Below are positions 34,719-35,092 of a stretch of 46,731 nucleotides of DNA, piece after piece. Under the pieces are notes generated by a model. The model saw nothing but the letters and a program-made list of their open reading frames with translations. It ran no database searches and had not been told where the DNA came from. The DNA is from Octopus sinensis. Lineage: Eukaryota. Location: assembly GCF_006345805.1 (NCBI RefSeq), contig NW_021835184.1, positions 1-46,731 on the forward strand, read 5' to 3'. Both the position numbers and the translations under genes were made by a program. Position 1 is the first letter of the stretch; each line of letters starts with the position of its first letter.

Positions 34719-35092
34719 TTAACCCTTTAGCATTTATGCTGGCCGTATCAACCTCAAATATTTTACCCATTGTATGTTCAAACTGGCTAGATTTGACTTC
34801 TCACACCTACCCTACAATGCCATTCTGAAAATAAATGATTTCATTATTGAAATCTCAAAGCTACGGAATAATACACCCAACACCAGAGCTGAAGACACCC
34901 TCGAAAGGTGCGGGGGGATGGGTGCACGCTAAAACGGTAGAGGAGTAGGGGCCGAAACTGGACGTGGTTCCTCCTGATGATGTCTTGAGCTAACTGGATC
35001 CTATAAAGGAGCTGTTGTGGTAACAGACCACGAAACACGGTTGAAATTCCTACTTCTGCATTTGACAGAATAATCTAAATGCTAAAAAAGGT
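34719..35092. mobile_element. TTAA-flanked MITE carrying a ~185-bp insertion
   Basis: Left end TTAACCCTTTAGCATTT and right end AAATGCTAAAAAAGGT. The interior matches 4966-5200 and the 108-bp unit, except for foreign sequence at ~34873-35057. Confidence 0.7.
34883..35042 (+). ncRNA. double hammerhead-like cassette (one type III fold)
   Basis: Core elements are CTGAAGA 34889-95, GAAAC 34954-58, CTGATGA 34974-80 and GAAAC 35032-36. After the GTA at 34937-39, GAGGAGT pairs with GTTCCTC directly before CTGATGA. Confidence 0.55.

Follow-up and report, generated by a model that had tools for sequence, protein, structure and literature searches.

Do the hammerhead-like motifs at positions 34873 to 35057 of the window, by which we mean the whole 46,731-nt stretch of DNA analyzed, form a ribozyme, and what kind of element carries them? 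A preliminary description had read this segment, taken as a 185-bp unit, as two interlocked hammerheads, one of them type III, left by a small retrozyme captured in a MITE. The motifs on which that reading was built (CTGAAGA at 34889, GTA at 34937-34939, GAAAC at 34954, CTGATGA at 34974, and GAAAC at 35032) are all present, and the stem I joining 34940-34946 to 34967-34973 forms 7/7 pairs. A nested fold of the region scored no better than shuffles (z -0.04), and Rfam returned no hammerhead match in the window region (E up to 5) and 0 hammerhead matches in 14 related loci.

The limits of the element emerged from a comparison of copies. A similarity search found 860 candidate copies in genome G000, of which 40 were scored at 89-92% identity, excluding the self-hit. 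All 29 other fetched copies end at most a few bases away from window position 35051, whereas their 5' starts are staggered upstream. The 185-bp unit was thus not retained, since the element ends at about 35051 and other copies extend kilobases further upstream. By this comparison, the window copy is a 179-nt 5'-truncated insertion of a LINE 3' end into an older MITE-like repeat. Capture in a MITE was half right: the motif does sit inside a MITE-like repeat, but judged by copy flanks this repeat is a mere landing site for the LINE fragment, as the flanks of the window copy are unlike those of the 29 other aligned copies. The host repeat (34719-35091) is putatively a MITE, the class named in the preliminary description. 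At the insertion site the repeat lacks about 35-40 nt (three comparison rows, two of which are the same locus), and alignment with uninterrupted MITE-like copies showed no target-site duplication around the insertion. Fragments of the same repeat also form a tandem run at window 4972-5930 with a period of about 105-115 nt. Another common repeat (families D9-D13) occupies window 35147-35743 in two to three adjacent copies. The parts of the window copy and its host repeat are as follows.

34719 to 34872, unstranded: left part of the MITE-like repeat (insertion target); aligns with uninterrupted copies L022/L230 and L243, with related fragments at window 4972-5930.
34873 to 35051, forward strand: 5'-truncated 3' end (3' UTR) of an RT-RLE LINE, family 1 of G000; sharp common 3' end, staggered 5' ends, and an RT/CCHC/RLE ORF upstream in longer copies.
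34887 to 34897, forward strand: strand a of helix IIa, including the CTGAAGA formerly called core 1; 10/11 pairs with 34981-34991, the helix being kept with other letters in relatives.
34898 to 34917, forward strand: hairpin h of a four-way junction; 5/5 pairs, with exact closure between a and b in 27/35 families.
34921 to 34926, forward strand: strand b, the helix IIb partner of the strand before GAAA, damaged in the window copy; 4/6 pairs, or 3 if distal stem III forms.
34924 to 34939, forward strand: block S, with the distal and proximal stem III 5' strands and an A bulge, then GUA, and the predicted cut after 34939; proximal 4/4 and distal 5/7 pairs.
34940 to 34946, forward strand: stem I strand 3' of the predicted cut; 7/7 pairs with 34967-34973.
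34948 to 34967, forward strand: block G, with strand b', GAAA at 34954-34957, and the stem III 3' strands; GAAA invariant in 31/31 aligned motifs and intact in 85/95 family copies.
34967 to 34991, forward strand: block C, with a stem I strand, CUGAUGA at 34974-34980, and strand a'; CUGA and GA invariant in 31/31 motifs and intact in 84/95 family copies.
34992 to 35051, forward strand: family-specific tail without poly(A), holding the second GAAAC, at whose end reverse transcription would start; across 79 copies the end point scatters over a few nt.
35059 to 35091, unstranded: right part of the MITE-like repeat, placed by alignment with uninterrupted copies.

Longer copies carry an ORF in which a reverse transcriptase domain (RVT_1, E = 1.8e-22) is followed by a CCHC knuckle and then by a restriction-like endonuclease motif. 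Columns C, C, H, C and D...E...K are conserved, and the endonuclease, read by motif, is PD-(D/E)xK-like. The closest relative with a solved structure is an R2 protein (E = 1.4e-12), and named homologues come from fish, lancelet, lamprey, and a cephalopod. With the single RT-CCHC-endonuclease ORF and the 5' truncation typical of R2-group non-LTR elements, the carrier by its domain order is an RLE LINE. We take it to be HERO-like, a putative clade assignment drawn from motifs, diverse flanks, and the host range of the homologues rather than from an RT tree with named HERO elements. The retroelement origin proposed earlier is therefore borne out; the carrier, however, is an autonomous protein-coding LINE family with a coding unit of about 3.9 kb, not a short, non-coding, non-autonomous retrozyme. 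A Penelope origin was rejected on account of the RT-RLE ORF. A second, distant family in G000 (family 2) has the same motif layout in different letters, and a search of viral contigs found no relative. Among 30 copies selected by protein alone, 26 reach the common 3' end, 4 stop earlier, and 0 stop at the predicted cut.

Several features outside the motif were recorded. Non-coding units with internal deletions, about 0.8-1 kb long, retain the ribozyme and the 5' UTR (L271:904-2064, L274:1102-2098, and L206); they look like retrozyme-type derivatives of the LINE. By eye, short repeats containing GGAAAGAC open the 5' UTR, just after the 3' end, in L131, L134, L135, L137, L138, L169, L187, and both G000 families; these are a possible promoter or protein-binding site. 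tRNA-like stretches were seen by eye just after the ORF stop, ahead of any motif, in L129, L134, L147, L152, L171, and L186, and ARAGORN recognized no tRNA in such stretches of the 3' UTRs (0/7 loci). Inverted partial copies lie beside the main copy at L018:1180-1344 and L261.

Within the window copy, the order of parts is cut site, GAAA, and CUGAUGA (S-G-C): the strand that precedes GUA makes 4/4 pairs with the one that follows the GAAA at 34954, the distal extension makes 5/7, and stem I makes 7/7. The type III alternative (S-C-G), with its stem III drawn to the second GAAAC, gives only 2/4 pairs in register. Of 79 metagenome loci, whose contigs may be collapsed assemblies, 72 match the C-terminal part of the ORF, and the 55 in which the ORF is followed by 200 nt or more served as the test set. 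A strict S-G-C descriptor was passed by 38 of these 55 loci from other organisms, against 0/55 on the reverse strand, 0/55 in ORF DNA, and a mean of 0.2 in ten shuffles; S-C-G and G-S-C orders each occurred once. Four of the 17 loci that fail the strict descriptor pass a relaxed one, and the others are, by eye, truncated, degenerate, or unrelated. Separately, L122, L157, L124, and L144 show an S-G-C frame by eye with an altered CUGANGA (L122 and L157, for example, have U as its first letter), which may be either a variant core or decay.

The tests across families used 35 non-redundant ones, from which the window copy, L145 (contig end), L071 (same family as L002), and 10 redundant motifs had been removed. 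When the cut site is set by stem III alone, a stem I of at least 4 bp follows in 34/35 families versus 10/630 other positions (counted without phylogeny correction). Position 17 is C in 13 families, A in 12, U in 10, and never G, and position 7 varies freely; pair 15.2-16.2 is C-G in 34 motifs and U-A in 2 (n = 36). GAAA, CUGA, and GA are the sole invariant columns in a plain sequence alignment of 31 motifs, the 5' half of which is misaligned. The CUGANGA/GAAA/UH core of a hammerhead is thus present, with stems I and III flanking it and covarying, again without phylogeny correction.

Stem II departs from the usual form. The canonical stem II, in which the strand after CUGANGA would pair with the strand before GAAA, is absent: pairing between 10.1 and 11.1 is possible in no more than 5/35 families, and no column rises above the permutation null; helix IIa, a hairpin, and helix IIb stand in its place. 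The strand before GAAA pairs with upstream strand b (IIb), and its first pair is G-C in 31/33 families, resembling the usual hammerhead pair G10.1-C11.1. The strand after CUGANGA pairs with strand a, further upstream than b (IIa). Between independently chosen a and b, a hairpin closes exactly in 27/35 families versus 35/1426 other positions; 8/35 families fail this test, L126 and L175 do not fit the junction, and in L165 a single canonical pair may remain before it. Per-column permutation p-values are inflated where helix positions were picked by pairing; only the placement of stem I from stem III and the hairpin closure are independent of that choice. Read across the families, the motif is one hammerhead core in S-G-C order with its stem II rebuilt through a four-way junction.

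The tip of hairpin h varies among families. A self-complementary hexamer occupies it in 16/33 (TGATCA in 9, TGGCCA in 5, and GACGTC in 2; shuffled rate 0.11), namely at L117, L123, L125, L130, L131, L133, L135, L137, L138, L141, L146, L153, L160, L162, L176, and L187. Such tips are a possible kissing-loop dimer signal, although the families are related and some tips may just continue the stem inward. In the family of the window copy, hairpin h ends in a GAAA loop in place of a hexamer.

Set against this anatomy, two interlocked hammerheads from a small retrozyme are refuted at the family level, and we give that model practically no credence. Its motifs exist, and its GTCT/AGAC stem makes 4/4 pairs in the window copy. 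The carrier is nonetheless a LINE, S-C-G order appears in 1/55 loci, and the first of the two cores is a helix strand: 34887-34897 pairs 10/11 with 34981-34991, directly after CUGAUGA, and relatives carry other letters there. The GAC regarded as a mutated GUC is GAC in 90/95 family copies, GAT in 5, and GTC in 0. Its branched stem II and terminal GAAAC belong to family-specific tail sequence, and the second GAAAC (35032) is, by eye, a hairpin loop in an older subfamily. What carried over unchanged is a hammerhead core with a GUA site, a triplet kept in 87/95 family copies, and a predicted cut after 34939.

We are almost certain that this is a real conserved RNA fold, and we consider active cleavage in intact copies likely. 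The window copy itself, with damaged IIb and distal stem III, is partly decayed and probably a weak or dead ribozyme. The fold could instead be a structure that cleaves rarely or not at all and is bound by the LINE protein, head-to-tail copies arising from read-through of tandem copies. About 112 nt beyond the cut are kept in every intact copy, so the template is continuous there, and genomic ends do not pile up at the cut, as this explanation would have it. Against it, the helices change letters whereas every catalytic position is retained and position 17 still excludes G, and without regeneration tail extensions could presumably only shrink over generations. We regard it as improbable.

LINE templates are assumed to be linear and primed at the 3' end. 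A ribozyme placed 112 nt short of the 3' end would be pointless unless the RNA went on beyond that end. A search with the 5' UTR gave 30 loci; in 4 of them the copy begins within the query, and 22 of the other 26 have their own tail joined upstream in the same register. In these tail-first copies about 120 nt separate the predicted cut from the 5' UTR that follows it. The 22 loci represent 16 distinct start points, 19-1015 nt upstream, of which 14 lie beyond the predicted cut and 0 at it. Only 1/30 copies (L234) starts at the predicted cut, which is compatible with chance. Starts at most 8 nt from the junction occur in 4/26 loci (3 independent), and by their position hint at some linear 5' ends there. 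Seven loci (L197, L201, L204, L208, L209, L210, and L212) have in common a tail-plus-5'-316-nt unit and a flank, the shared flank placing the unit inside a larger duplicated segment.

Paired tails can be compared with tails of other copies. In family 2, the two tails of L251 differ at 3/981 positions versus 20-46 for 9 other copies; this is the one tail-first locus among 10 fetched, most others being 5'-truncated. Paired tails of family 1 are weakly closer than background, with own ranks of 1, 2, 5, 5, 7, 12, and 22 among 18-26 comparisons. In L271 an internal-deletion junction is present twice, as if a 1-kb template had been read 1.3 times. Of 79 3' ends, 10 extend into the junction by 2 nt or more, where a rough estimate expects about 2. 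The start of the ORF follows the motif in 7/32 metagenome loci, on contigs that may be collapsed assemblies. Three raw RNA-seq runs under a related label (about 6% of each) and one contig set were mapped on both families; read pairs came about equally from both strands, the tail was covered and the 5' UTR hardly, and no ends piled up. Libraries of this kind cannot show a cut, so the result weighs neither way. The genomic footprint of the copies points to a circular or end-joined template and is consistent with the earlier hint of circular RNA. A template whose ends are either joined or clasped is the probable source of these copies; for a covalent circle specifically, the copies leave the chances about evenly balanced.

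Two other roles for the cut were weighed against the same starts. The ribozyme might merely trim the 5' end of a linear RNA, like the R2 5' ribozyme (of the HDV-like class, going by cited titles), perhaps for cap-independent translation. A cut about 120 nt ahead of the 5' UTR suits such trimming, and translation can be driven by hammerhead cleavage (PMC13725137). A linear RNA beginning at the cut would limit extensions to about 112 nt, however, and 14/16 exceed that; as a sole role trimming is very unlikely, although it may coexist with a circle. Somewhat more serious, if still unlikely, is an RNA that is cut and left unsealed, nicked but clasped by its helices, with the reverse transcriptase jumping the nick. 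This would account for the same head-to-tail copies; low-level template jumping is reported for R2 proteins (PMC10499050), as is poor self-ligation, at 1-3%, for retrozyme hammerheads (PMC7229834). One upstream copy (L061) lacks 3 nt just after the cut. Yet no recurring scar appears where extensions cross the cut, and copies do not start there with any excess (1/30).

The reading we prefer is that of a LINE 3' end with one S-G-C core and a four-way junction; intact copies likely cut themselves after 34939, and the unit-length RNA is likely end-joined and copied as a circle. As a whole we consider this reading reasonably likely. While the anatomy, covariation, and head-to-tail copies are observed, the following steps are inferred. 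Transcription of a copy with part of its own tail in front would yield an RNA with two ribozymes, both of which would cut to release a unit of about 3.9 kb. Helices IIa, IIb, and III would clasp both ends, which either the ribozyme itself or an RtcB-type ligase would then ligate into a circle. The element's protein would then prime reverse transcription internally, about 112 nt past the cut, and go round the template. Synthesis would mostly halt early, as in the window copy, and sometimes exceed one full turn, giving a new tail-first copy. In its broadest form, that a widespread autonomous LINE clade replicates through a self-cut, re-sealed, coding circular RNA of about 4 kb, with a seventh hammerhead topology whose junction clasps the ends for ligation, the proposal is tentative, at a little under even chances.

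Eckert et al. (2023, PMC10085705) define six block orders and assume that CUGAnGA is inseparable from its stem II strand. The four-way junction splits the two and so falls outside those six orders; since PMC10085705 holds that link unbreakable, cleavage activity is not guaranteed. The nearest published forms are the type-SGC hammerheads of the same paper (HRIMA-1 and variants), which share the S-G-C order (here in 38/55 loci) and the full core; in both, stems I and III form a pseudoknot and only a short linker joins stem I to the strand that precedes GAAA. There, however, block C is unbroken and the strands following CUGAnGA and preceding GAAA pair with each other, whereas here the two have separate partners, both upstream. 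That paper reports type-SGC motifs from metatranscriptomes and metagenomes and from no genome of a known organism, and the present ones reside in an animal LINE. We found no published description of the split-core S-G-C topology, although the supplementary alignments of PMC10085705, outside our coverage, could hold closer forms. If our reading is true, hammerhead architecture would extend beyond six block orders treated as exhaustive; and as Rfam misses this form (0/14 loci), counts of ribozymes in animal genomes may fall short by many.

Among retroelements, the HERO clade (PMC4640811, PMC3636483, PMC9004415) is likewise built on one ORF with RT, CCHC, and RLE, with no specific target and with relatives in fish and lancelet. 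Our literature search, which left subscription papers and Repbase reports outside its coverage, found no HERO ribozyme or HERO circular template. R2 elements (PMC7650587) are also RLE LINEs whose transcript is processed by a self-cleaving RNA, but that ribozyme is of another class, stands at the 5' end, and acts on a linear template. Retrozymes (PMC7229834; bioRxiv 10.64898/2026.07.22.740005) are alike in the proposed cycle of hammerhead cut, circular RNA, and reinsertion; circular RNAs have been demonstrated for them (PMC7229834), whereas the circle proposed here comes from a genomic footprint. They differ in being non-coding, 170-400 nt in animals, and type I (type III in plants), against a coding unit of about 3.9 kb. 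A fold that clasps both cut ends could serve circular RNA production. Penelope-like elements (Cervera and de la Pena 2014, PMC4209133) are protein-coding retroelements that, as here, carry a terminal hammerhead and occur as head-to-tail copies, and a circular template has been proposed to explain their reverse transcription beyond unit length, but their motifs are type I or minimal and the elements encode GIY-YIG, in contrast to the RLE LINE and the other topology described above. If our reading is true, rolling-circle-type copying would extend from Penelope-like elements and retrozymes to true LINEs.
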